From Thermodesulfobacteriota bacterium (GTDB lineage: Bacteria; Desulfobacterota_D; UBA1144; Nemesobacterales; JAJCZQ01), in contig OZ244044.1 in NCBI GenBank assembly GCA_965215275.1, positions 1,344,001 through 1,408,000 of the forward strand: 64,000 bases of DNA, written 5' to 3'. A program made the position numbers and the translations under genes. The notes beneath the pieces were generated by a model that made no database searches, was not told the DNA's origin, and saw only the letters and a program-made list of their open reading frames with translations. Shown piece by piece: positions 9,073 to 61,672 of this stretch. Position 1 is the first letter of the stretch, and every line of letters starts with the position of its first letter.

Positions 9073-11585
9073 ATGAACATCCTGTTTAGAGTAATACCCC
9101 CCCCCATAAGTTATTAATCCCTTTTTTCTTTCTTCTGTGTTTTGTAAACGTTGGTGCATATGGTCAGACCAGCATTAATAACTGTGACTCCAGTGCAACG
9201 ACCGAAGCTACGTTGAGAGTTCAAGGAGCGGCACACAATGGAAGTTTAGCTGCCGGTGCTGATCCGCATTACTTTCAGACAAACATAAATGAACCTCTTA
9301 TTGTAGATATAGAGGTAAACTTCTCCTTCTCCAGTGATCAGGAATACAGTTTACAGTTGTGTGACAGCAATGATGGTCTGATAGCAAGTACTACTGAAGC
9401 ACATCCAAATGATGACAGGGTAGTAAGGACGGCCACTCTACAAACTCGCTTAAGACAGGGAACGTACTATATAGTTGTGGGAAGCAGTGGTGCTACATCC
9501 TACAATGTTAAAGCTCAATTAGCTGATTCTAATGGACTCTTACAGGCCTGTCTAGATATTACTACCAATTTTCCAAATGATCCCTTGTACGGGTGTCAGT
9601 GGTATCTGAAAGGTCCAGTGGTTGATGTGCTAATAAGTAACAATCGGATATTCCAAACCTCTGGAGAAGATATAGATATAAACATAGAAGAGGTCTGGGA
9701 TGATAGTGTATTTGGAGCTGGAATTAACGTAGCGGTGGTAGATCATGGTATGGACACAGATCATGAGGACCTTGCTGACAATGTGGATACCACACTTTCT
9801 CATGATTACTCTGGAAATGGTGATCTGTACAGTCCTTCAAGTGGTCGCGGCACACGTGTAGCTGGCATTATAGCAGCAGTGGGTGATAACAGCCTTGGAG
9901 TAAGAGGTGTAGCACCTGAGGCAAACATCTACAGTTATAATTTAGCTGATAACTTCAGTGATGCTAATGCAAAGGACGCCATGGTCCGTAATAAGGATAT
10001 AACTGCTGTATCGGTCAACAACTGGGGACCGAAGGACCTGCCGGTTCTTACAGAGGCTTCATCAGAGTGGGAAGAAGGAGTGGAAACTGGTATAAGAGAA
10101 GGGTTTGGTGGTAAAGGAGTGTTTTACGTATGGGCGGCAGGGGACGGAGGTGAAGGATCAGATCAGGCTAATTTTAATGAGTATTCCAGCTACTACGCTG
10201 TAACTACCGTATGTTCAGCAGAGATCAGTAAGATTGCAGTAGGGGAGATCTCTAATGTAGGGGAGGTTGTTAAGAGTTCTTTTTCAGAAGAGGGATACAA
10301 TCTATGGGTATGTGCACCGGGTTCTGATATTGTAACTACCGACAATAACGACGGTTATAGTTTTGAGTTCCCTGGAACGTCAAATTCAGTTGCTGTCGTT
10401 TCAGGAGTAGCAGCACTGATACGGGAGGTAAACAGCGATATTAGCTGGCGGGACCTGAAACTTATCCTGGCAGGTTCAGCCAGCCAGGCAGGCGAGGTAG
10501 CTGGTGGCCGCCTAGGCTGGAAGAGAGGAGAACTTCAATACGGTTCTGATTCAGAGTATTATTTTTACAGTCCAAAGTTTGGTTTTGGCATGGTAGATGC
10601 TGCTGCGGCAGTGGAACTTGCAGGAAGCTGGACCAACGTTCCACCGCAAATGAGACCCGTGACGGTTTCCTCTGGTAATATCAATACGGTTATCCCGGAC
10701 TTCACAACGGGAGGAAACGCGGAAGACGTTTCCGCTGTCTTCACACTGAACGTACCTGATATTGATATACCAGGTACTGAGGTCTTTACGGAATTTATAG
10801 AGATAGGTATCAATTTCACTCACCCTTTCTTTCCTTTTTTAGATATAGAAATAACCTCCCCTGACGGTACTACCGTGTCGAAACTCACTGAGGCATATCC
10901 AGCAGATGCAATATCACATTTATCTGACGGGTCTCTTACTGTAAACGACTTTAAGTACACAGGCAGAGAGCACCGTTTTGGTTTAGCCAATCACCTGGGA
11001 ACAGACCCTGCCGGAGAGTGGACTTTGAAAATAACTAATAATTCACCTGCAGGTACGGGGACCTTACACTCATGGAACATTAAGGTCTATGGTCATATGT
11101 CTGGTGATAAACCGACGTTTAACAGCTGGACGATACCAAGTAAGAATTACGTGCCGGGAACTGCAGTAAAGGAAACACTGCCTGAGGCAACAGCAGGGAA
11201 TGGAGAATTAACCTACAGCCTTTCCCCTCTTTCTTTACCTGTTGGACTTACTTTTAGTGAAACTGACCGAGTGATCAGCGGAACACCAACTGCTGTATCT
11301 TCCGGCAGTTATACATATACGGTAACGGATGAAGATGGAGATACGGACGAGCTCATCTTTACCATCAGGGTAACAACCACGCCACCAGGACCGACAGACC
11401 CACCAACAACAAGACCACCGACACGAAGACCGACACCATCAGGTAGTGATGCAGGTGGAGGAGGATGTGCGGTCTCCGAGCAGAACGAAGCTGCTTCTGA
11501 TCTGCTCACAGCATTGGCATCTCTGATGCTTATACCTGTATCCGTTGTGATAAGAAGGAAGATAAGGTCTCGGATAAAGGCTTAG
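9073..11585 (+). CDS. Kexin-like S8 family surface protein 1 (PPC-like, S8, P domain, one Ig repeat, GGGGC-TM tail); frameshifted at C9 tract; catalytic His replaced by Arg
   Basis: ORF 9213-11585 stays open upstream to 9090 and encodes signal peptide LLIPFFFLLCFVNVGAYGQ, homologous to the paralog 2 N-terminus; nearest usable ATG (9073) is out of frame across C9. Confidence 0.85.
9097..9105 (+). repeat. Poly-C tract (C9)
   Basis: GTAATA-C9-ATAAG. Confidence 0.95.
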
Positions 11586-11715
11586 TAATGCGGTCCTTTC
11601 CAAGCATTTATGAGAGAGGATTACTTCTTTTATATCAGTTATAAGTTCGTTGAGGAGAATGGATGTATTACCGTGTATTGGGCTATAGTATATAATTTCC
11701 TAAAAATTCAGTAGG

Positions 11716-12192
11716 TCATTTATATTTTTTGAACAAGTATATCACTATAATTACCATCATTACAAGCAGTGTTAGCTGCATTATGTAAAAAGAGCTCAGC
11801 TTAAGATATGCAAAGAGCGGACTCACGTACCTTATCAGCCATCCACTGATGATCTCTGTGAACGTTGAAATAAACGACAGCAGTATCAGCACCAGTTTCA
11901 TGTGTGACCTGATAGATGTAAACAGTACAAGGTGAGTAAGGGTTACCAGTAATATAGCCATTGAGAAAAAGTGAAAATGGGCTTCTTCAAGTAGACCTAT
12001 ATAACTTTTTGGAGGTCTGAAAGTCTCCTCGTTGCCTAAGTAAAATTCAACGACCGAGTTGTAGCTGAAACCGATCTGCATGTATAAAAGTATGTTCGTT
12101 ATCCACAGGAACAGGAAAAACAGTATGGTAAAGAAGATTATAATCTTGAGAAAGTCGTTCTTTCTGAGTTCGGAGGATATAAAAAATCTCAT
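11716..12192 (-). CDS. Four-TM inner-membrane protein with HxH motif
   Basis: Hydrophobic helices, LLEEAHFHFFSM..LTHL; last gene of the porin/FMN operon. Confidence 0.75.
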   Translation of the reverse strand: MRFFISSELRKNDFLKIIIFFTILFFLFLWITNILLYMQIGFSYNSVVEFYLGNEETFRPPKSYIGLLEEAHFHFFSMAILLVTLTHLVLFTSIRSHMKLVLILLSFISTFTEIISGWLIRYVSPLFAYLKLSSFYIMQLTLLVMMVIIVIYLFKKYK

Positions 12193-12197
12193 GAATG

Positions 12198-12749
12198 TTA
12201 AGTATGATCACTAAATACGACTTTGTATATAGCGAGGATCTTTCTGGTATTTCTTGAAAACTCGTGAGAAGTAATGGTTGCTCCAGTAATATTGGGGATT
12301 TTTTTTCCCGTTCTCAACTCGTCATTGATACCTTTTCCGTCAAACAGGTCGAGCCATTTGGTTGAAGGCATGTATTCAGGTGGTTCAAAAAAAGCCAGGA
12401 TTTCAGCATTGATCAAATTACCGCCTTTATCGATTAAATACAGTACTGTTTCGGACCTTGTTCTTAAAATGTGCGAGTCGACCACCCCGTAGCCTAGAAC
12501 GTTTGCTTTGCTTCTGAACTCATAAAATATGTGTATTTTTGAGTCCGGAACAGTCCCGGACAGCTTCTTGATTGTCTGCACCTGTTTTTCGGTAAGAAAT
12601 ATGGTTATTTTTTCAATCGAAGTTGCTTTGGGAAATGCAGAGTTCAGCGACTGTTTTAACTGGACGAGCGTCTTGCTTTTTGCGGGTACAGTGAAGAAGA
12701 TGAAAGCCAGTATAAAAACCACCAATGTACAGTTTGTTATTTTATTCAT
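12198..12749 (-). CDS. Secreted FMN-binding domain protein (flavinylation substrate)
   Basis: Signal peptide; C-terminal NITGATITS fits the [S/T]GA[S/T] ApbE flavinylation motif. Confidence 0.85.
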   Translation of the reverse strand: MNKITNCTLVVFILAFIFFTVPAKSKTLVQLKQSLNSAFPKATSIEKITIFLTEKQVQTIKKLSGTVPDSKIHIFYEFRSKANVLGYGVVDSHILRTRSETVLYLIDKGGNLINAEILAFFEPPEYMPSTKWLDLFDGKGINDELRTGKKIPNITGATITSHEFSRNTRKILAIYKVVFSDHT

Positions 12750-16696: not shown

Positions 16697-16812
16697 GGGA
16701 GCTGCATACATAACTTTAGGACATGAGAAAATTTTTTGTGACGTTCAGTCAGGATAAAGGTATTAATACCAAGTTAATTCAAGGTGTTACTTCCTCAATC
16801 CCGTAGAAGACA
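16697..16812 (+). repeat. Left copy of diverged ~115-bp inverted repeat flanking S8 paralog 2
   Basis: Aligns by eye (~75-80% identity) with the reverse complement of 19451-19565; contains palindrome GGTATTAATACC. Confidence 0.85.
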
Positions 16813-17104
16813 TGATACTCCTGACCTGAGGAACGGAATTTTATTTCAGGGGGAGAGTGAGTAGATAAAATCCCCTATGACTTTCCTGCTGTATCAGGTT
16901 ATGTTGTAATCCCTGTACCGATGTTTTGGTTTCAAGGTAGTTTTCAGTTTCCTCTTTTCCAGTACCGCTTTGTTTAAACTCTCCGTATGAGGTCTTAGGA
17001 ATAATCCACCGTAAGTGTTTACCCGTAAATACTCAGCTTTTAAAAGAAAACCAGGCTATGACACGTTTTTTTAGTTCGTTCAAAACCTTGAAGAAACCGC
17101 ATTG

Positions 17105-19435
17105 CTATGTTTTTATCTGAGACCTTATTTTCCTTCTGATCACTGCCGACACGGGTATAAGTATCAGAGACGCCACTGCTCCGAGCAGATCAGAAAAAAT
17201 GTCGTTCTGATCGGAGATCGTACATCCTCCTCCACCGCCAGCTTCAGGATCTGGTGGGGGATTCACCACCCTGATCATGAAGTTCAGTTCAGCCATATCT
17301 CCATCTTCGTCTGTTACCGTATACGTGTAAGTACCAGACGATGCACTCGCAGGTGTCCCACTTATCTCTCGGGTGGCTGCGTCAAAATTCAATCCATCTG
17401 GTAAATCAGGTGTTAAACTATAAGTTAATGTTCCATTCCCTCTCGTCGCCGCAGGCAGTGTTTCTGTTACTGATATACCCTTCAGATACTTCTTATCATC
17501 TATCGTCTCACTGCTAAAGCTTGGCACTGTATCGCCCCTCATATGCCCATAAACTTTAATGCTCCATGAGTGTAAGGTCCCTGTATCTCCAGGATCAGTG
17601 TCAGATATCTTCAAAATCCATTCTCCAGCAGGGTCTTCTCCAAGGTGCTTGGCTGAACCAAAACGATGGGTTTGGTCCGTGTAACCAAGATCATTCTTAG
17701 TGAGTAAAGTGCCGGATATATATGATAACGCTCCTGTTACATGTTCCTCAGTAAACTCCGACACAGTACCATCAGGGGACGTTATTTGTATATTTAACTC
17801 TGGAAAAAAACCGTGAGTGAAATTGAGACTGACCTCAATGAATTTCGTAAAAAGATCATCAGTATCGGGTATGGTCAGGATGAAAGTAATTGTTCCGTCT
17901 ACTTCACCTACAGCGTCGGGGATCGCTGTATTAATATGACCCGAGGAAGCAGTCAGGGTTCTCATCTGTGCAACTCTGTTCCAACTTCCGGCAAGTTCTA
18001 CTGCAGCCTCGGCATCCACTACGCCAAAACCGTACTTTGGATTGTAATTATAACTGTCTGTATCAGAACCGTATTTAAGTGCTACTGTCTCCCAGCCCGG
18101 ATCGGTCGGGTCGTTCCTGCGGGCTGAAGCTGCCAGTATCAGCTTCAGGTCCCGCCAGCTCAGATCACCGTTTACCTCTCTCATCAGTGCTGCTACCCCT
18201 GAAACGATCGGAGCAGAAAATGACGTTCCGCTAAATCTGAAATTATAACGGTCTTTATTATCTGTCGTTGTAATAAGTGAACCTGGAGCACATACCCATA
18301 GATTTACTCCTTCTTCCGAAAAAGAACTCTTCTTTCCAAATCCATCCGTTGAACATACGGTAGTTACAGCGTAGTAGTTGGAAAGTTCTCCAAAATTAGC
18401 CTGAACGAAATCATCATGTCCGTTTCCAGCTGACCAGCTGTAAAAAATTCCTTTACCACCAAAACCTTCTCTGATACCTGTTTCCACTGCCATTTCCCAG
18501 GTTCTCTCAGCAGAGTGAAGACGAAGGTCTCTTGCTCCCCAGCTGTTGCTGGATACTGCAGTTATAGCTCGATTACGTGTCATAGCGTCTGCCCGGTTAG
18601 CGGAACTGTAATTATTTTGCTTTATCAAGTTATAATTATAGATACTTGCCTGAGGTGCTACTCCTCTTATGCCAATTCCATTATCACCCACTGCTGCTAT
18701 AACGCCCGCTACAAGTGTACCGTGATCACTTGAAGGATTAAATACATTACTGTTTCCGGAGTAATCATGATTCAGGCTGGGATTTACATTGGCGACCAGG
18801 TCCTCATGCAAGGGGTCCATACCACTGTCTACCACCGCCACGTTAATTCCTCTGCCGGATATTCCATCGTTCCACACTCCCTCTATGTTTATATCTTCTC
18901 CTTCTGTTATTCTCTGCCCTTTGACCTCCAACTGCCCTGTGTTTTTCAGATGCCACTGACAGCCGTATAAGGGATCATTAAAATTGGTAGTAACTTTCCC
19001 ACAATCGGATAACAGATCGTTGTAATCAGTATCTGTTGCAACTGAAAGCTGGTAACTGACAGCACCACTGCTTCCCACAACTATATAGTAAGTTCCAGGT
19101 CTGAGGCGAGCTGGGATATTATTAATACTATCTGCTATCTTAGTACTGCTTGCTATCAGATCATCGTTACCGTCACAAAGCTGTAAACTGTATACGAAGT
19201 TATCATTGGTGAAGGTTGTCTCTATGTTTACGTTAACTTCGGATGCTGTGTCTATCTGAAAATAATTCAGTCCACCGGCACTTTCAAAACTTCCATCGTG
19301 TGCCGCTCCGTCCACTGTCAGCGTGGCTTCAATCGTTGCACTGGGGTCACAATTATTATCACTGATCTGACCATATGCATTTATGGACATACAACATAGA
19401 AACAAGAAAAAGGGAATTATATACAGGAAGTTCAT
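17105..19435 (-). CDS. Kexin-like S8 serine protease 2 (signal, PPC-like, S8, P domain, Ig repeat, GGGGC-TM tail); intact triad
   Basis: VAVVDSG, DHGT, SAGNG, SGTSFSAP, LSWRDLK, P domain GEWILKI..GTLHSWSI. Confidence 0.92.
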   Translation of the reverse strand: MNFLYIIPFFLFLCCMSINAYGQISDNNCDPSATIEATLTVDGAAHDGSFESAGGLNYFQIDTASEVNVNIETTFTNDNFVYSLQLCDGNDDLIASSTKIADSINNIPARLRPGTYYIVVGSSGAVSYQLSVATDTDYNDLLSDCGKVTTNFNDPLYGCQWHLKNTGQLEVKGQRITEGEDINIEGVWNDGISGRGINVAVVDSGMDPLHEDLVANVNPSLNHDYSGNSNVFNPSSDHGTLVAGVIAAVGDNGIGIRGVAPQASIYNYNLIKQNNYSSANRADAMTRNRAITAVSSNSWGARDLRLHSAERTWEMAVETGIREGFGGKGIFYSWSAGNGHDDFVQANFGELSNYYAVTTVCSTDGFGKKSSFSEEGVNLWVCAPGSLITTTDNKDRYNFRFSGTSFSAPIVSGVAALMREVNGDLSWRDLKLILAASARRNDPTDPGWETVALKYGSDTDSYNYNPKYGFGVVDAEAAVELAGSWNRVAQMRTLTASSGHINTAIPDAVGEVDGTITFILTIPDTDDLFTKFIEVSLNFTHGFFPELNIQITSPDGTVSEFTEEHVTGALSYISGTLLTKNDLGYTDQTHRFGSAKHLGEDPAGEWILKISDTDPGDTGTLHSWSIKVYGHMRGDTVPSFSSETIDDKKYLKGISVTETLPAATRGNGTLTYSLTPDLPDGLNFDAATREISGTPASASSGTYTYTVTDEDGDMAELNFMIRVVNPPPDPEAGGGGGCTISDQNDIFSDLLGAVASLILIPVSAVIRRKIRSQIKT

Positions 19436-19450
19436 CAGTGATCTTAATGG

Positions 19451-19565
19451 TGTTTTCTACGTGATCGGGGAAGTAAAACCTTGGATTAACGCGGTATTAA
19501 TACTTTTTATATTAGCTGAACGTCGCAAATGATTCTTTCACGTCCTGGTTATGTATGTAACTCCC
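19451..19565 (-). repeat. Right copy of inverted repeat (upstream region of S8 paralog 2)
   Basis: Reverse complement matches 16697-16812; ends ~15 nt before the ATG at 19435. Confidence 0.85.
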
Positions 19566-22954: not shown

Positions 22955-23596
22955 ATGATCAGCACCCAGTCTCTTAAGTCGGCTTATCAATATAAGAAAG
23001 ACCCGATAAGAGAAAGAATAGCCGAGTTTGAAGATCTCCGCGACGTAACGGATAACAGGGTGATATTCCGGGAACTCGTTTTCTGCATCTTGACCGCCGG
23101 AACGAGCGCTGAGATGGGAATTAAGGTAGTTGAAGAAGTCGGGGAAGTGATATTTACCGGAAGTACATCAGAGATTAGGGATAAACTCAAGGGCATATAC
23201 CGATTTTACAATATCAGGTCTGACTACATAGTTCATACAAGGGAATACCTGACCTCCAATTACGACTTTAATATCAAAGAACTGCTGGATTCTTTTGCAA
23301 GCGTCGAGAGAAGGGACTTTTTTGCTTTAAACCGGAATATCAGGGGTATAGGGTTCAAGGAGGCAAGCCATTTTTTGAGAAATATAGGCTATAAGGGATA
23401 TGCGATATTGGATAAACACGTTGTTAATGCACTCTGTGACCTTGGGGTGATCGATCAGAAGAGGCCTCCATCAAACAGGAAAGGCTATCTTGAGATGGAA
23501 AGGAAATACAAAAGGTACGCGGAAGAAAACGGGTTTGATATAGATGAACTTGACCTGCTGATATGGAGTGAAAGGACCGGGAAAATACTGAAGTGA
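22955..23596 (+). CDS. ogg: 8-oxoguanine DNA glycosylase/AP lyase (archaeal/Thermotoga Ogg2 type)
   Basis: ELVFCILTA, IRGIGFKEASHFLRNIG, AILDKH, C-terminal TGKILK. Confidence 0.9.
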   Translation: MISTQSLKSAYQYKKDPIRERIAEFEDLRDVTDNRVIFRELVFCILTAGTSAEMGIKVVEEVGEVIFTGSTSEIRDKLKGIYRFYNIRSDYIVHTREYLTSNYDFNIKELLDSFASVERRDFFALNRNIRGIGFKEASHFLRNIGYKGYAILDKHVVNALCDLGVIDQKRPPSNRKGYLEMERKYKRYAEENGFDIDELDLLIWSERTGKILK

Positions 23597-23602
23597 AGCC
23601 GC

Positions 23603-24256
23603 ATGAAAATCGACCCTGATATCATTAAGGAACTGAGGTCTTTATACAGAACGGTTAAGAGCGATATCGACGGCAGGCTTGATCAGTTCAGTTATATACA
23701 TCTGAGAGAGGACGATGAGGAGATATTCAGAGAACTTTGTTTCTGTATCCTCAGTTCCGGTGTCGGTCCGAAAATGGCGGAGAGATCGGTTGCTGCTTTA
23801 GGAGATAAGCTGTTAAGTGGTTCGGAAAGTGAATTAAAGGACCTGCTGGTCGGTACGCATAAATATCCGGATAAAGCATCGTATATCTACAGCACCAGGG
23901 AGTATCTGAAAGATAGTCTGGACCTCCGCCTGATCGCAAAGCTCAAATCTGCCGAAGACCCTGACCAGAGAAGGGATTTTATAGCAGATAACAAAAATAT
24001 CCGGGGCATGGGATACGTTCAGGCAAGCCATTTTTTAAGGAACGTAGGATTTTGCGGTTACGCCATCCTGGACAAGAACGTTCTTAGGTCACTGTATGAA
24101 CTTGGAGTAACGCAGGATATAAAACCACCTGCCTCCAGGGGGAGATATATGGAGAAGGAAAGCAGATTCAGAGAGTTTTCCAGCAAGGTTCAGATCAGTA
24201 TTGATAAGCTGGACCTGCTTCTGTGGTACCGCAGGACCAACAGGGTCCCGCGTTGA
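23603..24256 (+). CDS. Ogg2-like paralog lacking the HhH catalytic Lys
   Basis: ELCFCILSS, IRGMGYVQASHFLRNVG, AILDKN, ends TNRVPR. Confidence 0.85.
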   Translation: MKIDPDIIKELRSLYRTVKSDIDGRLDQFSYIHLREDDEEIFRELCFCILSSGVGPKMAERSVAALGDKLLSGSESELKDLLVGTHKYPDKASYIYSTREYLKDSLDLRLIAKLKSAEDPDQRRDFIADNKNIRGMGYVQASHFLRNVGFCGYAILDKNVLRSLYELGVTQDIKPPASRGRYMEKESRFREFSSKVQISIDKLDLLLWYRRTNRVPR

Positions 24257-36133: not shown

Positions 36134-37966
36134 ATGCCGAAGAAAAACCATAAAGCCCTTATTGCTCATGAAGAGGCTAAGTCTTACAAAAGGATAAAGT
36201 CAAAACACGTAATCGAAGACCTGTTTACCGACTTTGTACCATGGAACAAACTGCCTTATTTTAAACGCAGCGTCACTGCTCCGAACGGGTCTAAAATAAA
36301 TCTGCAGGACGACCCTGCCGTTATCGTTGGTGTTGGAACGTTAAAAAGCACAGATAAGCAATTTGCGATTATCGCCCAGCAAACGCCTTCGAACGAGGAA
36401 GAAAGGGCAAAATTTAACTATGGCCTTGTAAAGTCCGACGGTTACGGACTTTCGTATAATATGATGGCGTATGCAGAGGAAAACGATATTATGCTTTGCA
36501 CGTTCGTTGATACGGTTGGAGGAGACCCTTATGAATATTCAGCTCAGAACCTTCAGTCATGGCTGATCTCTTACTGCCAGTCAAAGATGATATCACTTAA
36601 GGTCAGGTCCATCTCCGTTGTTCTAGGTCTTGGCGGAAGCGGGGGAGCAATTGCGATACAGCTTGCTCATAAGAGACTGATGATGTCAAGAGCTGAATAT
36701 TCGGTAATTACTGCTGAAGGTTGCTCTGCGATCCTCTTCAGAAGTGCCGACAAGGTGCTTGATGCCCTGCAGGTACTTCAGCCGACGGCAACCCATATGA
36801 AAAAATACGGGATCGTTGATGACATTATCAATGAACCGTCCCTGGACAGGCTTAATTATTTTGAAGTTACTCTGGAAAGGCTCAAAAAATCCTTAATAGA
36901 TTCATATCAGGAACTTGAACACTTTGATTTGAACTATCTGAAGAAGAACTTGCAGGATAAGATAGATTACGTTGGGAGTCTGGAAAAAAACCCCAGAAGT
37001 TACCGGGGTATAGCTAAGCAAATTAAAGCCTCGATACAATCTTATTTTTCCAGAACGACAATCCCTGACATCTCGGAAATGCAAATAGCCCTTTACGGTG
37101 CCGAGCCTTACTTTTGCAACGATGAAAAAGATGGTGAGGGAAAAATAATACGGTACGGGTGCAGAAAACAGTTCAAGCGAGAGGAACTTCAGAATAACTT
37201 CTCGGCATGTCCCGAATGCTATAAACCCGAAACCCTGAATTCCGACGATTATCTCAACTTACTGGTAGACGACGGTACTTTCAAGGAGATAAGAGGAGAT
37301 CTGAAGACCGATGATATTTCCACGAAGTTCAGTTTTTATGACTATTCTTCCTCCAGGGAAAAAGCCTCAAAAAGAACCGATTCCAAGGACTCACTTGTTA
37401 TAGGTTACGGACTCGTTAATAACTATAAAGTGGCAGTGGCGGTCTGTGATTTCAGATTTATGGGTGGATCGATGAGTGCGGTGTTCGGGGAAAAGATGAA
37501 ATTGATCGTTGACCATGCGATACGAACGGGACTTCCTTTAATAACCGTTACTGCAAGTGGTGGAGCGAGGATGCAGGAAGGGACCGTTGCACTTTACCAG
37601 ATGGCAAAAACCATATCAGCTATACTGAAATTAAAGGAAGCCAGCCTTCCCCATATTTCAATACTTGGACATCCCACGACCGGAGGGGCACTTGCCAGCT
37701 ACGCTGTACAGGGTGACTTCATATTGTCTGAGCGAAAAGCCACGATAGCGTTCGCGGGTGACAGGGTTGTCAAGCTCACCAGCGGAGGTAGAGGCGTTGA
37801 TCCGGAGATAATGACCTCGGAGTTTTATACGAAGCACGGTGGAATACACCTTACAACTGAGAGGAACCAGCTTAAGTCCGTAATTGCGGGGATTTTACAG
37901 GTGAAAGGTTTTCAGACCGTTAAAGTGCAGAGTCCGGAAAGAGAGTTTAAAGAAGATTGGTATTGA
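36134..37966 (+). CDS. Acetyl-CoA carboxylase carboxyltransferase, alpha-beta fusion (AccA then AccD)
   Basis: N half GGSGGAIA, YSVITAEGCSAIL; C half Zn finger, DFRFMGGSM, SGGARMQEG, PTTGG. Confidence 0.88.
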   Translation: MPKKNHKALIAHEEAKSYKRIKSKHVIEDLFTDFVPWNKLPYFKRSVTAPNGSKINLQDDPAVIVGVGTLKSTDKQFAIIAQQTPSNEEERAKFNYGLVKSDGYGLSYNMMAYAEENDIMLCTFVDTVGGDPYEYSAQNLQSWLISYCQSKMISLKVRSISVVLGLGGSGGAIAIQLAHKRLMMSRAEYSVITAEGCSAILFRSADKVLDALQVLQPTATHMKKYGIVDDIINEPSLDRLNYFEVTLERLKKSLIDSYQELEHFDLNYLKKNLQDKIDYVGSLEKNPRSYRGIAKQIKASIQSYFSRTTIPDISEMQIALYGAEPYFCNDEKDGEGKIIRYGCRKQFKREELQNNFSACPECYKPETLNSDDYLNLLVDDGTFKEIRGDLKTDDISTKFSFYDYSSSREKASKRTDSKDSLVIGYGLVNNYKVAVAVCDFRFMGGSMSAVFGEKMKLIVDHAIRTGLPLITVTASGGARMQEGTVALYQMAKTISAILKLKEASLPHISILGHPTTGGALASYAVQGDFILSERKATIAFAGDRVVKLTSGGRGVDPEIMTSEFYTKHGGIHLTTERNQLKSVIAGILQVKGFQTVKVQSPEREFKEDWY

Positions 37967-45767: not shown

Positions 45768-45796
45768 TTGACATTGCAGTAGAACAGAAGTAAAGT
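45768..45796 (+). promoter_or_regulatory. Putative sigma70 promoter of S8 paralog 3
   Basis: TTGACA (45768-45773), 17 nt, TAAAGT (45791-45796); homologous to region 9001-9075. Confidence 0.55.
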
Positions 45797-48700
45797 ATGA
45801 AAAACATGATGAATTCTAATCCCCCCCCCCCATCAATGTCGTAGTCCAGTAAGCGGTTCCTGCTGGAACAACGGACAGTTCATACTTTCCCTTATCTTTT
45901 TTCTTCTGTGCATAATGGTCATAGCTGCAAAAGGACAGAGCGGCCTGGAAGAAACATTATCTGAATGCAGAAGCATCAGTGCAGACACGGAAGATCCGCT
46001 ATACGGATGTCAGTGGCATCTGAAAAATACAGGACAGCTTGGGGCTGTAACTGCCTCCGGAGAAGATATAAACATAGAAGGGGTCTGGGATGATAATGTG
46101 TTCGGTGCTGGAATAAACGTAGCGGTGGTAAGTGATGGTATGCAGACGGGTCATGAGGACCTTGCTGATAATGTAAATACCAGACTGAACCATGATTATT
46201 CAGGAAGCGGTAACGTATACGACCCTTCAAAAGCTCATGGTACACGTGTATCGGGAGTTATAGCAGCAGTGGGTGATAACAGCCTTGGAGTAAGAGGTGC
46301 AGCACCAAAGGCAGGCATCTATGGTTATAATTTAGCTGGCAACTTCAGTAATGCTAACGCAAAAGATGCAATGGCCCGTAATAAGGAAATAACAGCTGTA
46401 TCCGTTAATGGCTGGGGACCGGATGACGGATATTCTCTTCATCAGGCTTCAGCTTCCTGGGAAGAAGGAGTGGAAGAGGGTATAAGGGAAGGGTTTTATG
46501 GTAAAGGAGTGTTTTACGTCTGGGGAGCAGGGGACGGGCATGAGAATAACGATCAGGCCAATTTTTCTGAATATTCAAATTACTACGGCGTAACTGCCGT
46601 GTGTTCAACGGACGGTTCTGGAAAGAAGAGCTTATTTTCAGAAGAGGGAGTAAATCTTTGGGTATGTGCTCCAGGAGAACATATTACAACCACTGACAAT
46701 AACGATGGATATGTTTTTGATGCGAGTGGAACGGCATATTCAGCAGCACAGGTTTCAGGGGTAGCAGCACTGATGAGAGAAGTGAACGGAGATCTGAGCT
46801 GGAGGGATATAAAGCTTATATTTGCGGGTTCAGCACGGCAGAACGACGTTTCTGACCTGAGCTGGAGGACTGGAGCAGTAAAATACGGTTCTGATACGGA
46901 AAGATATAATTATAATCCTAAGTATGGTTTTGGAGTAGTTGACGCAGAAGAAGCAGCAGAACTTGCCAGAAGCTGGAAAAGTGTGGGTGAAATGAGGACC
47001 GTTACCACCTTTTCTGATAAAGAGATAACAATTCCTGATGGAGAAGGAGAGGCAGACGGGGTCCTTGTTTCCAGACTTATGATACCGGACCTTGAAGAGG
47101 TAACATTTACGGAGTTCACAGAAGTGGAACTTGTTCTTTCGTGTGATTGCTTACAGAACCTAAATATACAGATAACCTCTCCTTCTGGGACAACGTCGGA
47201 ACTTGTGCGGGAGGTTGCCGGGGAGTCTGTAAGGGGATCTTCAGCTGAAGAAGAAAACTGCGTCAGTTACCTGAGAAGAACACATCGTTTCGGGTCGGCT
47301 AAGCACCTCGGAGAAGACCCTTCCGGAGAATGGATCCTTAAAATATCCGATACTGCTTCCGGAGATGCAGAAGATGGAGAAAATACTTTTACCTTACACT
47401 CCTGGAGCATTAAGGTATATGGGCATAAGAAGGGTGATACTGTACAGGACTTGACTAAGGAGATAACTCCTAAACTTCCTCCAGGCGGTTTTGGCACCTC
47501 TCAGATCGATAGAGTTTATACAGTAGAGGAAGCAATAACACCATTAACGCTGCCTGAGGCATCGGTAGGTACTCCGCCAATTACTTATAGTTTTGATTCA
47601 TTACCTGATGGATTGGCATTTGATCCTGACACCCGAGTGTTAAGCGGAACACCAACTACTGTAAAGGATAGGACCGCTTATATATATAGGGCTACTAATA
47701 GTGAGGCAACGAACTTTATCTTTGTTCAGATTACAGTAAAAGACCTGCCGCCAACCTTTAATGATACGATAGGTAATAAGGAGTACATAAAAGGGGTTCC
47801 GATAACACCAGTAACACTGCCTAAGGCAACAAGAGGGAATGGAGACTTAACATACAGTTTAGCCCCTGATCCATCTGCTGCTGGATTGACATTTGATCCT
47901 GTTACACGAGTGTTAAGCGGAACACCAACTACTGCAACGAGCAGTACTACTTATACATATACGGTAACAGACGGAGATAACGTTACTGATGATTTGACGT
48001 TCAATATCACAATACATAATGACACTTCTCCAACCTTCTGGGAGACGATAGATGGTCAGGAATACATAGCAGGAAGTCAGATAACACCAGTAACGCTGCC
48101 TGTGGCACAATCAGGGAATACTCCATTAACTTACAGTATAACTCCTCGTTTACCTGATGGATTGAGTTTTAACAGGAACACTCGAACGATAAGTGGAACA
48201 CCAACTACTGCAATGTCTCAGGCTACTTATACATATACAGCAACAGACGTAGATGACGATCCGGCTGAGTTAACGTTTGATATTACTATATCAGCAGACA
48301 CAGATCCGACCTTCGGCAGTGAAATGATAGATAATAAGGTGTACGTTAACGGCATTACAGCAGTAATGGAAACACTGCCTGAAGCAACGGGAGGGAATGC
48401 TCCTTTAACTTACAGCTTAAGCAGTGGTTTACCTGCTGGACTGGACTTTGATACAACCACCCGAGTGTTAAGTGGAACACCCAATGTTGTTGATCCAAGT
48501 GTACTTCCTGTAACTGTTACTCATACGTATACGGTAGAAGACGCAAATGGAGATACTGACAATCTGACGTTCAGTATCACTACAGAAGCAGACAGCGATC
48601 CGGACTTCAGCAGTGTGACAATACCTGATCGGGTGTACACGGGGAGATCAATAACGCTACCCGAGGCAACGGGAGGGAATCCACCAGTCATGTACAGTAT

Positions 48701-49046
48701 AACTACATTACCAGCTGGATTGAGGTTTGACCCTGCTACCAGAGTTATAAGTGGCACACCAACCCGTGCATCATCTGCTGCTTCTTACACGTATACGGCA
48801 ACGGACAGCAATGGAGATACGGCTAATGTGAATTTTATGCTCAGTGTAGAGGTTTCTTCTACTACTCCGCCAACAACACAAGGACCAAGAACATCAGGTA
48901 CTGATTCAGGCGGAGGTGGAGGAGGATGTGCTGTCTCCGATCAGAGCAGCACTGCTTCTGATATTCTCGGAGCAGTGGCATGTCTGATACTTATACCCGT
49001 GTCAGTAGTTATCAGAAGGAAGAGAAGAGCTCAGATAAAGACTTAG
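45797..49046 (+). CDS. Kexin-like S8 family surface protein 3 (S8, P domain, five Ig repeats, GGGGC-TM tail); frameshifted at C11 tract; catalytic Ser replaced by Ala
   Basis: ORF 45915-49046 stays open upstream to 45813 and encodes FILSLIFFLLCIMVIAAKGQ; ATGs 45797/45806/45809 are out of frame across C11. Confidence 0.85.
45821..45831 (+). repeat. Poly-C tract (C11)
   Basis: TCTAAT-C11-ATCAA. Confidence 0.95.
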
Positions 49047-55844: not shown

Positions 55845-56034
55845 TAGATAACTATGTAAGATTGTACATACTACACATAGTAATCTCTAACTATAAATTA
55901 CACGCAACTGAGTGTAAATCTTCGGCTGGTCAAAGACCTTGATTGTTTTTAAACATGTCTGGAAATAAAATCCAAAATTGATACAAGCTGATAATATTTG
56001 AACTAACGATTAAAAACAAGGAGGTTAAATTTCA

Positions 56035-56499
56035 ATGGAATATGAAGGAGGTAAATTTTCAAGTATAGCAGAAAGTCTATCCAAACGTTTACATGGGAGA
56101 ACTAAAGAAGGTTTAGGTATCACCGTAGGAGATATTCTTGAAGTCTGCGTAGACGCTGAAGTTTTAGGAAGCAGAGGTATAAATATGGTTAATTGTTACC
56201 CTGGGGATTTTCGTACAAACATATGTTGTCCTGTTGCTTTTTTTATTTCTATAAATGGAGTTGCGGCACAAGGACAGGGACACTTTAGTTTTAGTAAAAT
56301 AATGGAAAAGTTTCATAGACACATGTATACCCAATGCTTTATGAGGACCCGTGAGGCGGCGATTATTAGCAATGACTGGGTGACAAAAGAATATGAAAAA
56401 TATGAGGATTATATTAGACGGCTTAGAGGAGCAGGTGTTAGGATTGAGGCTTACTTTATTGGCGGTCGGATGGAAAATTCATTATTAGTAGATATTTAA
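56035..56499 (+). CDS. Hypothetical protein A1 (paralog of 60364-60798)
   Basis: RBS AAGGAGGT; shares NCY..CCPVAFFISINGVAAQG.GH..FHRHMY..CFM.TR.A.IISNDWVTKEYEKY with the second copy. Confidence 0.8.
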   Translation: MEYEGGKFSSIAESLSKRLHGRTKEGLGITVGDILEVCVDAEVLGSRGINMVNCYPGDFRTNICCPVAFFISINGVAAQGQGHFSFSKIMEKFHRHMYTQCFMRTREAAIISNDWVTKEYEKYEDYIRRLRGAGVRIEAYFIGGRMENSLLVDI

Positions 56500-56528
56500 C
56501 GAGTTATTCTATTAGCTATGGTAAAGAG

Positions 56529-56694
56529 TTTAAATGAACTTCCAATAAGACAGAAAATAGCTACATTGATGAGCAGTGGTGTGTTATCTCAAGAGAATAA
56601 TTCCATTGCAATTTCGTGTAAGGTGGTTTCTTAACGCTCTCGACAATAATGGATAACAAACTAAAGATGTTTGTGCTTCCAATTTAATTTTCAA
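56529..56694 (+). pseudogene. Decayed fragment of the UDG-like gene
   Basis: Matches ~61186-61355 (AATAAGACAGA.AATAGCTACAT.GATGA, GACAATAATGGAT, AAAGATGTTTGTGC.TC.AATTTAATTTTC) with an indel and a TAA. Confidence 0.8.
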
Positions 56695-56743
56695 ATTAGG
56701 AACCCAAAACAACTAGTTTTACTGTTTTACGATCAGGTCTCTT

Positions 56744-57256
56744 CTATACCCAAAATCTTGATGGGTCCGTTTCAAATAAATCTTTTATAAAATCATCTCT
56801 AACTTCTTTTTTTATTTCACAAACCTGTAAATATATCTTAATTGATAACTCCGTATCATAATTGTTACGATGCACTTTCTTTAAGTTAAAATAGAAATAT
56901 ATCAAATACACAAGACCCGACAAACATCCTTTCTTCTCAAATGATTTATATATAGCTGGAAAATTTTTTATATATTTTAAGAAGTCATTTTTACTATGCC
57001 TATCAGAATCATAATATTCATCAAAAAAACGTGCAGTTTGTATATTTATATTATGATTCTTAAAATAATTTTCTAAAGAATAATGTTCTAACTTTCTGTT
57101 CCATCCTATATCAACAGACTTATGTCTTGTTCTTGCTACAAACCCTACATATTTGTTATATTTTGGGATTGACATACAAACATAAAGAAGGGATTTTAAA
57201 ATATCATCATATTCAGAATTAGGATAACCTTTTCTCATATTCACACACAAAACCAA
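56744..57256 (-). CDS. Hypothetical protein (very AT-rich)
   Basis: 170-aa ORF, no family recognised. Confidence 0.55.
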   Translation of the reverse strand: MVLCVNMRKGYPNSEYDDILKSLLYVCMSIPKYNKYVGFVARTRHKSVDIGWNRKLEHYSLENYFKNHNINIQTARFFDEYYDSDRHSKNDFLKYIKNFPAIYKSFEKKGCLSGLVYLIYFYFNLKKVHRNNYDTELSIKIYLQVCEIKKEVRDDFIKDLFETDPSRFWV

Positions 57257-57434
57257 AAAACATTAAAAAACTTTTTAGAATTGCCACTTCAGAATATTTG
57301 TAATGCAGTTGTATAGCAATTTTACTCTTGACAACATTTATATGATAACCATTTAAACATATGTTTATACTAATAAACTATCTACTTGCTTGTTTTAGGC
57401 AACATTGTATATAATCCCCAAACTTTAAGCAGTA

Positions 57435-57556
57435 ATAAAATAAGTTCCACACCGCGTTTTGAATATTCATCTATAAGTGTAAACTGCATTAAACTCCGTT
57501 TAGTCAGATATTTGCTGCTACATTCAATAATGCCTTTATCTTCTGGTTTCTTGCCA
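57435..57556 (-). pseudogene. Decayed copy of the 3' end of the GNAT-aminotransferase gene
   Basis: GKKPEDKG..SKYLTKRSLMQFTLIDEYSKRGVE vs GKKLENQG..SRYLTERNLMQFALMGEYSKHGVE; DNA matches ~61768-61891. Confidence 0.85.
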
Positions 57557-57686
57557 ATTAAAAGAGGCATACTCTCTGTTTAAAACTAACAACCCTGTAT
57601 GATAATTTAGGAAATTACATATATAAATTGACATAAAGAAAATTATTATTGACACTTAGTTGGGATAAAGATAGTATATTATAATA

Positions 57687-57953
57687 ATGCGAATCCCCCC
57701 CCCCCCCCCCCCCCCCCCCCATCTACCCCATAACAACACGGATACTACTGGCTGGGATAATTTAGAGTCTTCACGAGCAATAAATAGTTTAATAGCAGTA
57801 TACCCACCGTTTAATAACACCAAGGGTTTTATTCTACTCCGAGCAGCACAGCGTATTGTCGAGCATTGCTCTATCGACTGGTATAGGTGTGTTTTTATAT
57901 ACTTGAATGTAACTCATAGAATCAAATTAATATATGGGAGGTATATTGTATGA
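57687..57953 (+). CDS. Possible leader ORF containing the C26 tract
   Basis: TTGACA(57649)-17-TAGTAT promoter, ATG 57687, MRIPPPPPPPPH..., stop overlaps the next ATG (ATGA). Confidence 0.4.
   Translation: MRIPPPPPPPPHLPHNNTDTTGWDNLESSRAINSLIAVYPPFNNTKGFILLRAAQRIVEHCSIDWYRCVFIYLNVTHRIKLIYGRYIV
57695..57720 (+). repeat. Poly-C tract (C26)
   Basis: GCGAAT-C26-ATCTA. Confidence 0.95.
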
Positions 57954-59269
57954 AATTATGTGCATATATTGTCACGTATGATGGAGGAAGTGCTCCAAAT
58001 CCCTTCTGGAGGTACTGCACCTTAGCATTTTGTACTCCTCATCGTAAGAGGGCAAAATTAGAAGTAGGTGATTGGATAGTAGGTCTTTTAGATAAAAGCA
58101 GAGGTAATAAACTGCTATACGCAATGGAAATTTCTGAAGTATTGGATTTTGATGAGTACTTTAACGATAAACGTTTTGCGAAAAAAAAGTTCAAAGTAAA
58201 GGGTAATTGGCAAGAAGAATGTGGAGATAATATATATAGAAGAAATAGTGAAGGTGAATTAGAACCATACCCGCATAGTTATAACCATCCTCGTAACAAA
58301 AATCAACAAGATCTAGATATGAAATATCCTAATGTGTTTATTTCAGAGAAGGATAATTTTTATTACTTTGGAAGAAACGCAAAAGATATACCCTCAAAAT
58401 ACAATATTTTTGCCGGATACAATATTACACAAAATATTAAATACTTTGATCCGCCTATTATAAATGATTTTATACTTTGGTTAAAAAACAATCATAAACC
58501 CGGAATACATGGAGATCCAAATAATAAGAGGAAAGCTATATTAGTCCGAGTAGGTATTGATGGAACTAAGGATTCGGGTCGTTGGAACGCTCCCTGTAAT
58601 CCGGACACAAAAAATTTTGTATATGTGCCGATACAACAAACTGAAAAATCCAATGCTCCTGGCATGGAAAGATACTATTCCAAACTTATAGTTCCGGCAT
58701 TGGATAGTTTTTCAAAATGTAATAACCGCAGCATTTCATTGCCCAAACATTTAATGGAAAAGCGTATGCACTTGGACCCAGACTTTGAAAACCTTACATA
58801 TGGCGATACCAGTTCTCGAGGTAAGAAGCTGCTGGATTTTAAAGAAGATGATCTGGTTGTATTCTATGCCAGTTTGAAACCTATAAAAAAGACAAAAGAC
58901 AATTTTGTTTATGCACTTATAGGTATGTTAGTAGTGAAAGAGATTTTGAGGGTAAAAGATGTAGACCCTAAACGGTTTGATGAAAATGCCCATACTCGTA
59001 ATGCTGAATGTGACCCGACGGACATAGTGGTTATAGGCAAAGAGGGTGTATCCGGTCGATTTGAGAAATGTATTCCAATCGGCGAGCGGCGAAATAATGC
59101 CTACCGTGTGGAAGAACGCATACTAGGTGAGTGGGGAGAGAAAGGATTGGAAGTCAAAGATGGATACATACAACGGAGTGCAAATCCTCCGCTGTTTGAA
59201 AAACCTGAGCGTTTTTATGAATGGCTTAAAAAGAAAAATCCAAAATTGATACAAACTAATAATCCTTAA
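57950..59269 (+). CDS. Nmad2-Nmad3 fusion (nucleotide-modification-associated domains)
   Basis: N part YIVTYDGGSAPNPF..CTLAFC..GDWIVG..GDNIY (Nmad2-like); C part LVRVGID...FVYVPI...HLDPDFE.LTYGD...VFYASL (Nmad3-like). Confidence 0.78.
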   Translation: MKLCAYIVTYDGGSAPNPFWRYCTLAFCTPHRKRAKLEVGDWIVGLLDKSRGNKLLYAMEISEVLDFDEYFNDKRFAKKKFKVKGNWQEECGDNIYRRNSEGELEPYPHSYNHPRNKNQQDLDMKYPNVFISEKDNFYYFGRNAKDIPSKYNIFAGYNITQNIKYFDPPIINDFILWLKNNHKPGIHGDPNNKRKAILVRVGIDGTKDSGRWNAPCNPDTKNFVYVPIQQTEKSNAPGMERYYSKLIVPALDSFSKCNNRSISLPKHLMEKRMHLDPDFENLTYGDTSSRGKKLLDFKEDDLVVFYASLKPIKKTKDNFVYALIGMLVVKEILRVKDVDPKRFDENAHTRNAECDPTDIVVIGKEGVSGRFEKCIPIGERRNNAYRVEERILGEWGEKGLEVKDGYIQRSANPPLFEKPERFYEWLKKKNPKLIQTNNP

Positions 59270-59331: not shown

Positions 59332-59988
59332 ATGACACAATCTAATTCACAACCTGATATTTTCATTTATAAGATGACAGCGGATACTGGTGGAGCACCA
59401 TGCATTCATGATGGGCTTATCTCACTGTGTATCTGTAAACCAGATATAAGAACTAGCCCATCCGCGAATAAAGGAGATTGGATTATTGGTATGGGTGGTA
59501 AAAGAGTTCCTGAATTAAAAGATAGATTAATTTATATAATGCAGGTGAAAGAGTGTATTAAAGGCAGTGTATACTACGCACCGGAAAGTAAATATGCGGA
59601 CCGTCCAGACTGTATTTATGAGTGGGATGGGAACGATTATATCTGGAAATCAGGAGCAAAGTATCATCTAGATGGGACAGGGTTAACAACAGATTTAGGT
59701 GAAGCACCAGAATACGACAAAGCAATTTGTCTTGTAGGAGATAAATTTGCATATTTTGGAGATGGCAAAAAAACAGATCCGAGTATTGCAGAAATTAAGA
59801 CTATTTATGAAGCACTGCCTAGGAATTATAAAAAAAATCATCCCACTGCAGACTATAAGCAGTTGATTGACTACATTAATCAGATCATAACAAAATATGA
59901 AGGAATGAATAGTACACCAACTCATTCAGATAAGAGCAAAAAGAGTAATGAAGTGGAAGATGATATGTATAAAGTTACTTGTGGGTAA
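59332..59988 (+). CDS. Nmad2-like protein
   Basis: YKMTADTGGAPC...SLCICKPDIR...GDWIIG...LIYIMQV...RPDCIY; RBS AGGAGG. Confidence 0.75.
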   Translation: MTQSNSQPDIFIYKMTADTGGAPCIHDGLISLCICKPDIRTSPSANKGDWIIGMGGKRVPELKDRLIYIMQVKECIKGSVYYAPESKYADRPDCIYEWDGNDYIWKSGAKYHLDGTGLTTDLGEAPEYDKAICLVGDKFAYFGDGKKTDPSIAEIKTIYEALPRNYKKNHPTADYKQLIDYINQIITKYEGMNSTPTHSDKSKKSNEVEDDMYKVTCG

Positions 59989-60013: not shown

Positions 60014-60334
60014 ACTATACTGGTTCGAGTAGGTATTGACGGAACTGATGTTTCAGGACATTGGAACGCTCTCTGGAATCTGGACTCCGAACGGTTTGAT
60101 GAAAATGCCCATACTCGTAATGCTGAATAGGACCTGACGGATATGGTAGTCAGAGGCAAAAAGGGTGTATCCGGGCGGTTTGAGATCGGTGAGTGGGGAG
60201 GGGAAGGGTTGAAAGTCAAAGATGGCTACATACAACGGAGTGCAAATCCTCCGCTGTTTGAAAAACCTGAGTGTTTTTACGCATGGCTTAAAAAGAAAAA
60301 TCCAAAATTGATACAAACTAATAATCCTTAAGCC
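60014..60334 (+). pseudogene. Internally deleted Nmad3 copy
   Basis: Three blocks matching ~58535-58606, ~58968-59066 and ~59126-59272; internal TAG; identical end KKKNPKLIQTNNP. Confidence 0.88.
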
Positions 60335-60363
60335 GATACGCAAAAATAAGGAACTAAATTCTG

Positions 60364-60798
60364 ATGAGAGATAGAAGAGGTGAATTTTCACATATAGCAG
60401 AGCGTATATCTGGACTTTTAAATGAAAGGTCGCAAGAAAATTCAGGTATCTCCATAGAAGATATTCATATACTAAGTGGAAAAGCAGGTATGATTAATTG
60501 CTACCTTGGATTTCCTACGAACGAGTGTTGTCCTGTTGCTTTTTTTATTTCTATAAATGGAGTTGCTGCACAAGGACGAGGACACCTTAATTTTAAAAAA
60601 ATGATGGTAGAGTTTCATAGACACATGTATATGCGATGCTTTATGAAGACCCGACATGCAGTAATTATTAGCAATGACTGGGTGACGAAAGAGTATGAAA
60701 AATATCACGAAGATATTGAACACCTTAGAAGGAGGGGTAAGACGGTTGAGGCTTACTTTGTCAGCCGGGGTGGTAGTCTGGTATTAATAGATATTTAA
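60364..60798 (+). CDS. Hypothetical protein A2 (paralog of 56035-56499)
   Basis: Near-identical core blocks with A1. Confidence 0.8.
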   Translation: MRDRRGEFSHIAERISGLLNERSQENSGISIEDIHILSGKAGMINCYLGFPTNECCPVAFFISINGVAAQGRGHLNFKKMMVEFHRHMYMRCFMKTRHAVIISNDWVTKEYEKYHEDIEHLRRRGKTVEAYFVSRGGSLVLIDI

Positions 60799-60965
60799 TA
60801 AGTTGTTGCTGTATTCAATGTTGAAAGAACACATGCTCGTTGAGAGATCTCCGTGAATATAAACCCCGATAGGAAAATGAACGGAATGTCTGAAGATTCC
60901 TTTTGATATTGGGCAAAAGTTCGTATATAATGTGCATGAGTTAAAAAATAATTAGGAGGCTATTT

Positions 60966-61672
60966 ATGAGTAACCTGAAAGATTTTGTTTCATTTGCCGA
61001 ATCTGAACTCGGTGGTGATGGGGGGGGGGGGGGATTCTTAACGAGAGTGGCAATATTCTTTACAGTAGTGCATCAACTCTTCGACGTAGTAATACATCAA
61101 CCCTTCAACGCGGTCCTGTATACCTCTTAGGAACAAATCCGGGTGGAGACCCAAAAGAATATAAATATAACACCATACAAGATACTTTAGATGCACTTCC
61201 CAATAAGACAGAGAATAGCTACATCGATGAAAAGTGGGGGCGTCGCCCGGGGAAACAGAAACACCCGTTGCAACGTCGTGTAATATGGCTTCTTAATGAC
61301 CTTGACAATAATGGATTAAAAACCAAAGATGTTTGTGCGTCTAATTTAATTTTCCAACGAAGCAGAAATACAAAAAGAAAAAATATAGATTTTAAGAAGT
61401 GTGCTGATATTTGTTGGCCCGTCCATGAAAGAATATTGCAAGTGGTTTCACCTAGTTTAATTATTGCGTTCGGTATTGAAACGTACAGTTATTTAAGAAA
61501 TAAATTAGGAAATGGGAATGAAATCACATTTCCATCAGGTCACGGAACCTGGGAATGCAGATCATTTAGATCTGATTCAGATATTTTGGTAGTAGGTTTA
61601 CCTCATTTAAGCCGTTACGCAGTAGATCGCCATGATAACGTAAAAATATGGATACAACGCCAAAAATGGTAA
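60966..61672 (+). CDS. Uracil-DNA-glycosylase-superfamily-like protein, frameshifted at G14 tract
   Basis: RBS AGGAGG + ATG 60966; frame after the tract reads VYLLGTNPGG...ASNLIF...PSLIIAFG...GLPHLS. Confidence 0.68.
61020..61033 (+). repeat. Poly-G tract (G14)
   Basis: GAT-G14-ATT (reverse complement AAT-C14-ATC). Confidence 0.95.

Follow-up and report, generated by a model that had tools for sequence, protein, structure and literature searches.

Do long runs of C or G near the 5' ends of genes act as phase-variation switches and, if several occur close together, do they belong to a single system? The question is raised by four such runs in a 64,000-nucleotide (nt) stretch of a Thermodesulfobacteriota genome (positions 1,344,001 to 1,408,000 of contig OZ244044.1, assembly GCA_965215275.1; hereafter the window, with all coordinates given in it unless stated otherwise). 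An earlier interpretation made from the letters alone, the sequence-only reading, had proposed that all four runs, which have similar flanks, are a candidate shared contingency switch that controls surface proteins and a DNA-modification and defence island. The analysis presented here indicates that the runs are probably slipped-strand phase-variation switches, and that one inherited 5' cassette, likely derived from a DNA methylase gene, is represented by three of the four.

The runs were located exactly as C9 (9097-9105), C11 (45821-45831), C26 (57695-57720) and G14 (61020-61033), and the next-longest C/G runs in the window are two of G6. They begin 24, 15, 8 and 54 nt past a start codon, respectively, within the roughly 55 nt originally described, and the flanks AAT(A)-Cn-AT are indeed present at all four, with G14 read on the minus strand. 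At C9, C11 and C26, the described arrangement is also present, with TTGACA, a spacer of 18, 17 and 17 nt, respectively, and a -10 hexamer followed after 9 nt by an ATG (predicted promoters at 9034..9063, 45768..45796 and 57649..57677, all on the + strand), and at C9 it would give a near-leaderless transcript. Three of the four genes are out of frame by one base, since C9 is short by one, C11 over by one and G14 short by one, and C26 is in frame. At all four open reading frames (ORFs), the run length determines the reading frame, which is the property that published criteria for phase variation mediated by simple sequence repeats look for in a single-locus repeat (PMC11868660, section 6). The shared productive frame, Pro-His, is found at C9, C11 and C26 as stated, but it is not general, as Pro-Ser-Lys is the commonest productive frame in the family to which these runs belong.

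The window is part of a closed chromosome of 1,990,023 bp (the source genome), which holds 787 C/G runs of length 5, 78 of length 6, none of length 7 and 139 of lengths 8 to 26, with a mode of 9. When the counts of runs of 4-6 are extrapolated geometrically, 0.9-4.4 runs of at least 8 are expected genome-wide, or 0.03-0.14 per 64-kb window, against the 139 observed, and thus the four runs in the window are not due to chance. For comparison, Campylobacter jejuni has 303, 18, 0 and 4 runs of G5 to G8, a mode of 9 and 11-29 tracts per genome (PMC3401435). As 115 genes of Neisseria meningitidis carry variable repeats of all types (PMC5084427), the count here is high, though not unparalleled. An ORF of 100 or more codons lies behind 99 of the long runs, and in 76 of these the run is 5'-proximal; the other 23 are mid-gene, where 13 split the gene by a frameshift and 10 are in frame. 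The corresponding values for 626 control runs of C/G5-6 are 125 5'-proximal, 11 gene-splitting and 490 mid-gene in frame. Many of the 40 long runs without a long ORF directly behind them are the first run of a pair. Enrichment of repeats at the N-terminus is a known mark of phase variation (PMC3315296).

The tracts sit in accessory genes, as had been claimed, and are biased towards 5' ends, although the "gene" at C26 is an 88-codon decayed methylase fragment rather than an intact gene. Among runs outside the surface-gene family described below, a subset covering 33 ORFs from 20 regions was annotated; these encode Type ISP, IIG, III and other methylases, TPR proteins, glycosyltransferases, sulfotransferases and SAM-methyltransferases, a putative membrane transporter family, and unknown ORFs. 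From the 5' bias, the accessory genes and the excess over chance, it is very likely that the runs are slipped-strand contingency tracts. Two general causes of run expansion were considered and rejected. An order-wide mutational bias was rejected because most of 91 genomes of the order have fewer than 15 runs, a count that fragmented assemblies lower, and loss of mismatch repair was rejected because the mutS and mutL frames are open (rho is likewise present with an open frame).

Long homopolymers are error-prone in sequencing, and the frameshifts could therefore be assembly errors in genes that are in fact intact and constitutively expressed. This is very unlikely, as such errors cannot produce 139 runs with a 5' bias, and independent assemblies agree on the off state at several loci and on the on state at others. 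Furthermore, mid-gene runs of A/T8-9, a control matched neither in base nor in length, are in frame in 117 of 122 cases and frameshifted in 5. Run lengths in other assemblies were all deduced from predicted proteins rather than from DNA, and on this basis length differs between close relatives at two loci, or three if an internal-start case is included. Specifically, at the position of G14, the starts of P0007 (98% identical) and of P0127, from the same cluster, point to G10; at a locus that has C17 and is on in the source genome, the stop at the end of P0191 points to C10, and thus to an off state; and P0183 and P0263 start internally where the source-genome gene is in frame.

Both C9 and C11 lie ahead of a hydrophobic signal stretch in frameshifted genes for S8 subtilase-like surface proteins, and both of these genes encode a P-domain and He_PIG repeats. 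The C9 gene (9073..11585, +; ATG at 9073) ends in a Gly-Cys C-terminal tail and has the residues D-R-S at the catalytic triad, and the C11 gene (45806..49046, +; ATG at 45806) has five He_PIG repeats and S-H-A; both are predicted to be inactive. A control paralog with the same domains (17105..19435, -) has an intact D-H-S triad, no tract and a long leader, and is in frame. Genome-wide, 51 loci of this subtilase family bear the cassette: 23 have a single run (4 in frame) and 28 have two runs about 60 nt apart, of which 1 is in frame from the first start and 5 from a second ATG between the runs. Therefore, 5 of the 51 are in frame from the first start, a number that rises to as many as 9 when double cassettes are allowed to use their second start. 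A degenerate promoter-ATG unit lies between the paired runs, which identifies the double loci as tandem cassettes; because the other frames contain stops, such a pair would act as an AND gate for the first start. The architecture is strict: among consensus promoter sites, all 57 that have a run within 130 nt have an ATG or GTG 8-10 nt past the -10 box, versus 23 of 223 run-less sites. Additionally, in 49 of 84 paralog pairs with at most two mismatches in 50 flanking nt, the run lengths differ. One practical consequence is that annotation pipelines call tract genes from internal starts, and the signal peptides are lost.

Several features of the family itself are recorded here. The C-terminus is almost always a Gly-run, a Cys, a hydrophobic stretch and a basic tail (11440-11585, 48900-49046 and 17105-17250 in the window), and this tail had no match among the NCBIfam sorting-signal models. 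Tract-bearing subtilase genes lie on the + strand in 41 of 49 cases, on both replichores (21 of 29 where + is the lagging strand), and 5 of 6 tract-less genes lie on the - strand. Beyond the 3' end of the tract-less subtilase gene in the window there is a copy, about 75% identical, of its own upstream region, facing the gene (16720-16815 on + versus 19435-19545 on -). This copy is possibly a relic of another paralog or an antisense promoter.

If the runs were simply mutation hot spots, then the family would be over-expanded and dead, the off copies would be lost functions decaying into pseudogenes, and the methylase relics described below would be mobile-element debris. Consistent with decay, the last run is in frame in 9 of 51 loci, which is under one third (binomial p 0.01, with copies that are not independent). 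Similarly, in an alignment of 55 S8 domains (one row misaligned), the Asp-His-Ser triad is absent from 48 of 49 tract-bearing paralogs and kept in 6 of 6 tract-less ones, and the island behind C26 is a decayed tandem duplication with ends of insertion sequence (IS) type. However, off genes still have 300-1,560 codons of open frame behind the run and in most cases retain the C-terminal tail, there are no runs of 7 while the mode is 9, and one locus that is on here is off elsewhere. Moreover, this is not a mutation bias of the whole lineage, as the counts of such runs in two sister genera are 3 and 0. Decay is therefore considered unlikely, and phase variation the better account of the off copies.

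Another way to reconcile frameshifted genes with function is that the DNA length is fixed and that low, regulated expression results when ribosomes shift frame on the proline codons or when transcription slips. A CCC-C codon context close to a start is +1 slippery, and 20 of the 28 second runs of double loci are one base too long. In contrast, most single-run genes would have to be shifted the other way (13 of 23 are one base short and 6 one over), and run lengths vary among paralogs and assemblies, which makes programmed frameshifting a poor candidate with a very small probability.

The sequence-only reading had further listed the flanks as common to all four runs. The pattern AAT(A)-Cn-AT is indeed enriched genome-wide, in 34 of 139 long runs versus 3 of 865 C5-6 runs, yet clustering by flank homology reduces the 139 runs to 35 families and the pattern to 3 of 35 representatives, so the flanks are inherited sequence rather than a signal. 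One family of 89 members holds C9, C11 and C26 and excludes G14. A dedicated factor that switches or targets all four runs together through their flanks would nevertheless be suggested by the identical flanks, and by some A/T bias of the flanks that survives clustering, with TA preceding the run in 15 of the 35 families versus 8% in the background. Against such a factor, G14 has the opposite strand sense, another promoter and flanks that derive from codons, the full pattern occurs in 3 of the 35 families, and the TA flank in related genomes is the -10 box of a promoter in whose spacer the run lies. Lengths and frames are also uncoordinated: every copy has its own run, and run lengths and frames differ from copy to copy. 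Joint switching is thus extremely improbable, and the view of a coordinated switch with flanks as its signal was not borne out; the flanks are inherited sequence at three runs and codons at the fourth.

That fourth run lies outside the cassette. Its gene (60966..61672, +) is frameshifted and uracil-DNA-glycosylase (UDG)-like, by a weak match (E 0.012) and by the names given to its homologues, and its own predicted promoter (60903..60931, +; 11 of 12 consensus positions) is followed by a 34-nt leader with a Shine-Dalgarno-like site at 60954. The tract (61020..61033, +) is G on the coding strand, 54 nt past the ATG at 60966 and out of frame. Homologues (P0008 and others) read through this position without a glycine run, and therefore G14 has been inserted between two codons, one for Asp and one for Ile, from which the apparent flanks come. 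G14 is also a singleton in the flank clustering and has an anchored p of 0.11 in the comparison of post-run sequences described below. In a congener (G001), the homologue has instead a G9 run in the promoter spacer. Taken together, G14 appears to be an independent, convergent switch in a UDG-like gene. The proposed reusable module that joins surface-protein and DNA-modification genes thus stands for C9, C11 and C26, and G14 is not a member.

Where did the cassette come from? In the source genome, N6/N4 methylase genes, and truncated relics of methylases as well, begin with the same promoter-ATG-poly-C layout. When a profile was built from five methylase-type promoters with the runs masked, eight subtilase cassettes ranked first (E<0.1), and 32 of 42 matches outside the training set had a run just downstream. 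An anchored comparison of the 14 nt past the run, with sequences after other C runs as the null, placed C11-type genes and methylase-type loci above 20,000 of 20,000 null draws, and C11 itself matches a methylase relic at 11 of 14 positions; C9 and G14 had no match to methylase-type loci in this comparison. The case for a homologous promoter-start-run unit beyond the generic sigma-70 consensus is strong family-wide and weak for C9 alone, and C11 is tied to the unit only through its post-run sequence. Outside the source genome, intact methylases with a promoter, 8-10 nt, an ATG and poly-C are found in the congener G001 and in two members of another family (G011 and G029). The S8 domain was not found, with the query used, in five of five relatives tried (two had Ig repeats alone), and a related-locus search found subtilase relatives in distant phyla only (8 loci). 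Because the layout heads intact methylases in other genomes and the subtilase expansion was not found in those five relatives, the methylase is the likely donor of the cassette, with the caveat that the tract-less subtilase gene also carries a degenerate version of the promoter further upstream. A scan of metagenomes with the commonest cassette word returned a single, unrelated chance match. In a methylase gene of the same family, at G000:C1:676716-676875, a pentanucleotide repeated 32 times lies just past the start, and a similar repeat precedes the homologue in G001.

How the cassette spread may be indicated by an end motif, assigned to the IS1595 type because it adjoins an IS1595 transposase. 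This motif lies ahead of 10 of 57 tract promoters versus 5 of 223 others. One methylase relic is enclosed by near-perfect inverted ends, and C26 has one degenerate inward end (57610..57622, +; 85 nt before the tract), for which no matching partner was found. IS1595-type elements may thus have moved the cassette. Genome-wide, about 100 copies of the short end motif are present, several of them as inverted pairs 1.3-3.4 kb apart.

The third cassette differs in what it precedes. C26, the longest run in the genome, begins 8 nt past the ATG at 57687 of an 88-codon ORF (57687..57953, +) that is the decayed 5' end of an N6/N4 DNA methylase (pairwise E 2e-7 to a methylase N-terminus), with a degenerate motif IV in which DPPF reads YPPF. 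The ORF is not a full methylase and had no NCBIfam or PADLOC match. Its stop overlaps the start of the next gene (ATGA), a Nmad2-Nmad3 fusion (57950..59269, +), so the ORF may act as a switchable leader. Further downstream are a second Nmad2 gene (59332..59988, +) and a 144-aa ORF (60364..60798, +) to which family look-ups assigned no known family. The description of this region as a defence island found no support in PADLOC, as 0 of 7 island ORFs match its defence proteins at E 0.01. The island is a decayed tandem duplication with a period of about 4.3 kb (55900-57555 versus 60200-61890), in which the Nmad3 end, the 144-aa ORF, the UDG-like gene and the end of a GNAT-aminotransferase gene are duplicated. 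In seven relatives, no run of at least 7 lies within 1.5 kb of the Nmad2 loci, and the switch is therefore not a conserved part of the Nmad2 system. A literature search found nothing on Nmad2 or Nmad3 in a phase-variation or leader sense.

Other relics bear on a possible leader function. Four promoter-linked relics precede different cargo genes, and all of their frames are open, with dN/dS of 0.5-0.8 among themselves over 45-58 codons. By simulation at 10-20% divergence per branch, the joint probability of four open frames is 0.004 to 2e-5. Two relics without a run have stops and frameshifts, and in five of six relics with a same-strand neighbour, the relic stop lies within -11 to +23 nt of the neighbour's start. 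The absence of stops had also been gauged against an intact methylase (dN/dS 0.1-0.4), but that argument was set aside as weak, because much of the divergence predates truncation, and it was redone among the relics. The open frames may thus fit selection for a translated leader that couples to the cargo or shields it from Rho, although with these small numbers it is the least secure step. A separate observation concerns a methylase relic, ahead of an intact methylase gene, in which seven AC repeats come straight after a C14 run (G000:C1:899096-899122).

Several results weigh against this overall interpretation. The same state is seen across assemblies at loci 1336585 and 753889 (on) and at three or more others, among them 452130, 315447 and the likely C9 orthologue (83% identical; off). 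Intact mutS and mutL should moreover lower slippage rates. On the origin of the cassette, the promoter-profile match of C9 is weak (E 7.2) and the C11 promoter is unmatched; the groups for the anchored post-run test were picked after inspection; and the unanchored comparison is not significant after multiple tests (best 28/5000). In a quick tree with six outgroups, the tract-less subtilase genes are basal and the tract-bearing genes form one clade on one side of a branch, so the association of triad loss with tracts counts as one evolutionary event, not 55. As for the leader, the Nmad gene has its own Shine-Dalgarno-like site within the leader ORF and may not need the leader, and the same applies to the cargo genes of the relics. 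A protein search for alleles of the C26 leader in other assemblies found none.

With slipped-strand switching of an inherited cassette still the preferred interpretation, the following mechanism is proposed. Replication slippage would add or drop one C, and each locus would shift in or out of frame independently, with no co-regulation. The cassette now heads several small operons as well as about 50 subtilase-like surface genes, most of which are catalytically dead. Most surface genes would be off in any one cell, and double cassettes would need both runs in frame. With loci that are mostly off and independent, and with two-run AND cassettes, a population would therefore carry a large combinatorial coat repertoire. 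The weakest step concerns C26, whose in-frame product would be only a leader and whose frame would adjust expression of the Nmad operon behind it, either through translational coupling or through Rho polarity. A more far-reaching version, which is put forward tentatively and may well be wrong, is that the 5' end of a mobile, phase-variable methylase gene was domesticated as a portable switch: it would have been grafted once onto a protease gene, which lost catalysis and grew into a coat of about 50 members with tandem AND gates, and the truncated, open leader would have come to control unrelated operons downstream, again through coupling or Rho polarity.

Comparison with other genomes of the order suggests that this is not the sole design. 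Among the 91 genomes, in which fragmented assemblies undercount runs, the source genome has the most runs of 9 or more (133), followed by G011 (130), G025 (113) and G072 (75). In a non-random sample of the relatives' run loci, poly-G in the promoter spacer accounts for 19 of the 30 runs sampled in G025, 12 of the 26 in G011 and 6 of the 21 in G001, versus 1 of 133 in the source genome. As the runs here are coding poly-C whereas those of relatives often lie in promoter spacers, large switch repertoires appear to have evolved on more than one occasion in this order, along different routes and in at least three of its genera. Two further features of the relatives were noted. Promoter-spacer G/C runs of G025 (loci L094, L095 and L096) are interrupted by an inserted element of 2.44 kb, which has inverted ends and contains a 594-aa ORF, so that a run remains on each side, and runs are paired 2.45 kb apart at about eight places, which suggests an IS that targets tracts. 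Runs of G9-10 also occur within apparently core genes (G001 loci L044 and L065; G005 locus L055), whose translations suggest ribonucleotide-reductase-like, dnaK-like and chorismate-synthase-like frames.

The surface-gene family is reminiscent of the opa genes of Neisseria gonorrhoeae, in that each of a set of dispersed paralogous surface genes carries a separate frameshift switch before the signal stretch; the opa repeat is located in the signal-peptide coding region. The opa family comprises 11 phase-variable genes (PMC11868660). Unlike these 11 beta-barrel adhesins, the genes described here are about 50 subtilase-fold pseudo-enzymes with a Gly-Cys tail, a mononucleotide run, two-run AND loci and a cassette shared with methylase genes. 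Contingency loci of C. jejuni are similar in having G/C mononucleotide tracts with a mode of 9 and none of 7, in surface and restriction-modification genes that are turned on and off by frameshift (PMC3401435). However, the 139 runs here are five to twelve times as many as the 11-29 tracts per C. jejuni genome, and they are mostly copies of one inherited cassette, with C on the coding strand, many tandem pairs, and intact mutS and mutL. Switching has been measured in C. jejuni (PMC3401435), whereas here it is predicted from sequence comparisons.

Phase-variable methylases and phasevarions, such as C. jejuni cj0031 (PMC11868660, PMC4889913), likewise have the repeat just past the methylase start, and several such genes are present here; the difference is that the methylase 5' end has apparently also spread to genes unrelated to it and survives as a truncated leader. 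For the proposed C26 leader control, a precedent is the poly-C of N. meningitidis siaD, where an out-of-frame tract causes polarity through frameshift-linked Rho termination (Lavitola 1999, cited in PMC3025981), although its status as evolved phase variation has been doubted (PMC11868660, section 6). The siaD tract lies inside a functional gene, in contrast to C26, which lies in a non-functional leader ahead of cargo. The promoter-spacer poly-G of N. meningitidis porA resembles the surface-family runs of the related genomes (PMC3639595), and differs from the source genome, where this layout is found at the single run noted above. Within the open-access literature, no methylase-derived cassette, tandem use of it or leader function was found in print. 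The runs are very likely phase variation of a known kind, and the new elements are a likely and traceable descent of the cassette from a methylase, its use in tandem and a candidate leader function.

Homopolymer phase variation is textbook knowledge for a few pathogens; here it would operate on a scale several times that of Campylobacter, in an uncultured bacterium with a 2-Mb genome and intact mismatch-repair genes. The locus also offers a traceable case of how contingency loci may originate, by reuse of a ready-made switch rather than repeat by repeat, and a switchable leader ahead of cargo genes would be a new design that can be tested.

Other features are unconnected with the runs. An Rfam scan of the window found two tRNAs and nothing else. 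About nine head-to-tail copies of a 40-bp AT-rich unit are present elsewhere on the chromosome, at G000:C1:391500-391850. Within the window, two Ogg-HhH glycosylase genes are neighbours at 22955-24256, and the carboxyltransferase subunits of acetyl-CoA carboxylase are fused in one 610-aa ORF at 36134-37966.

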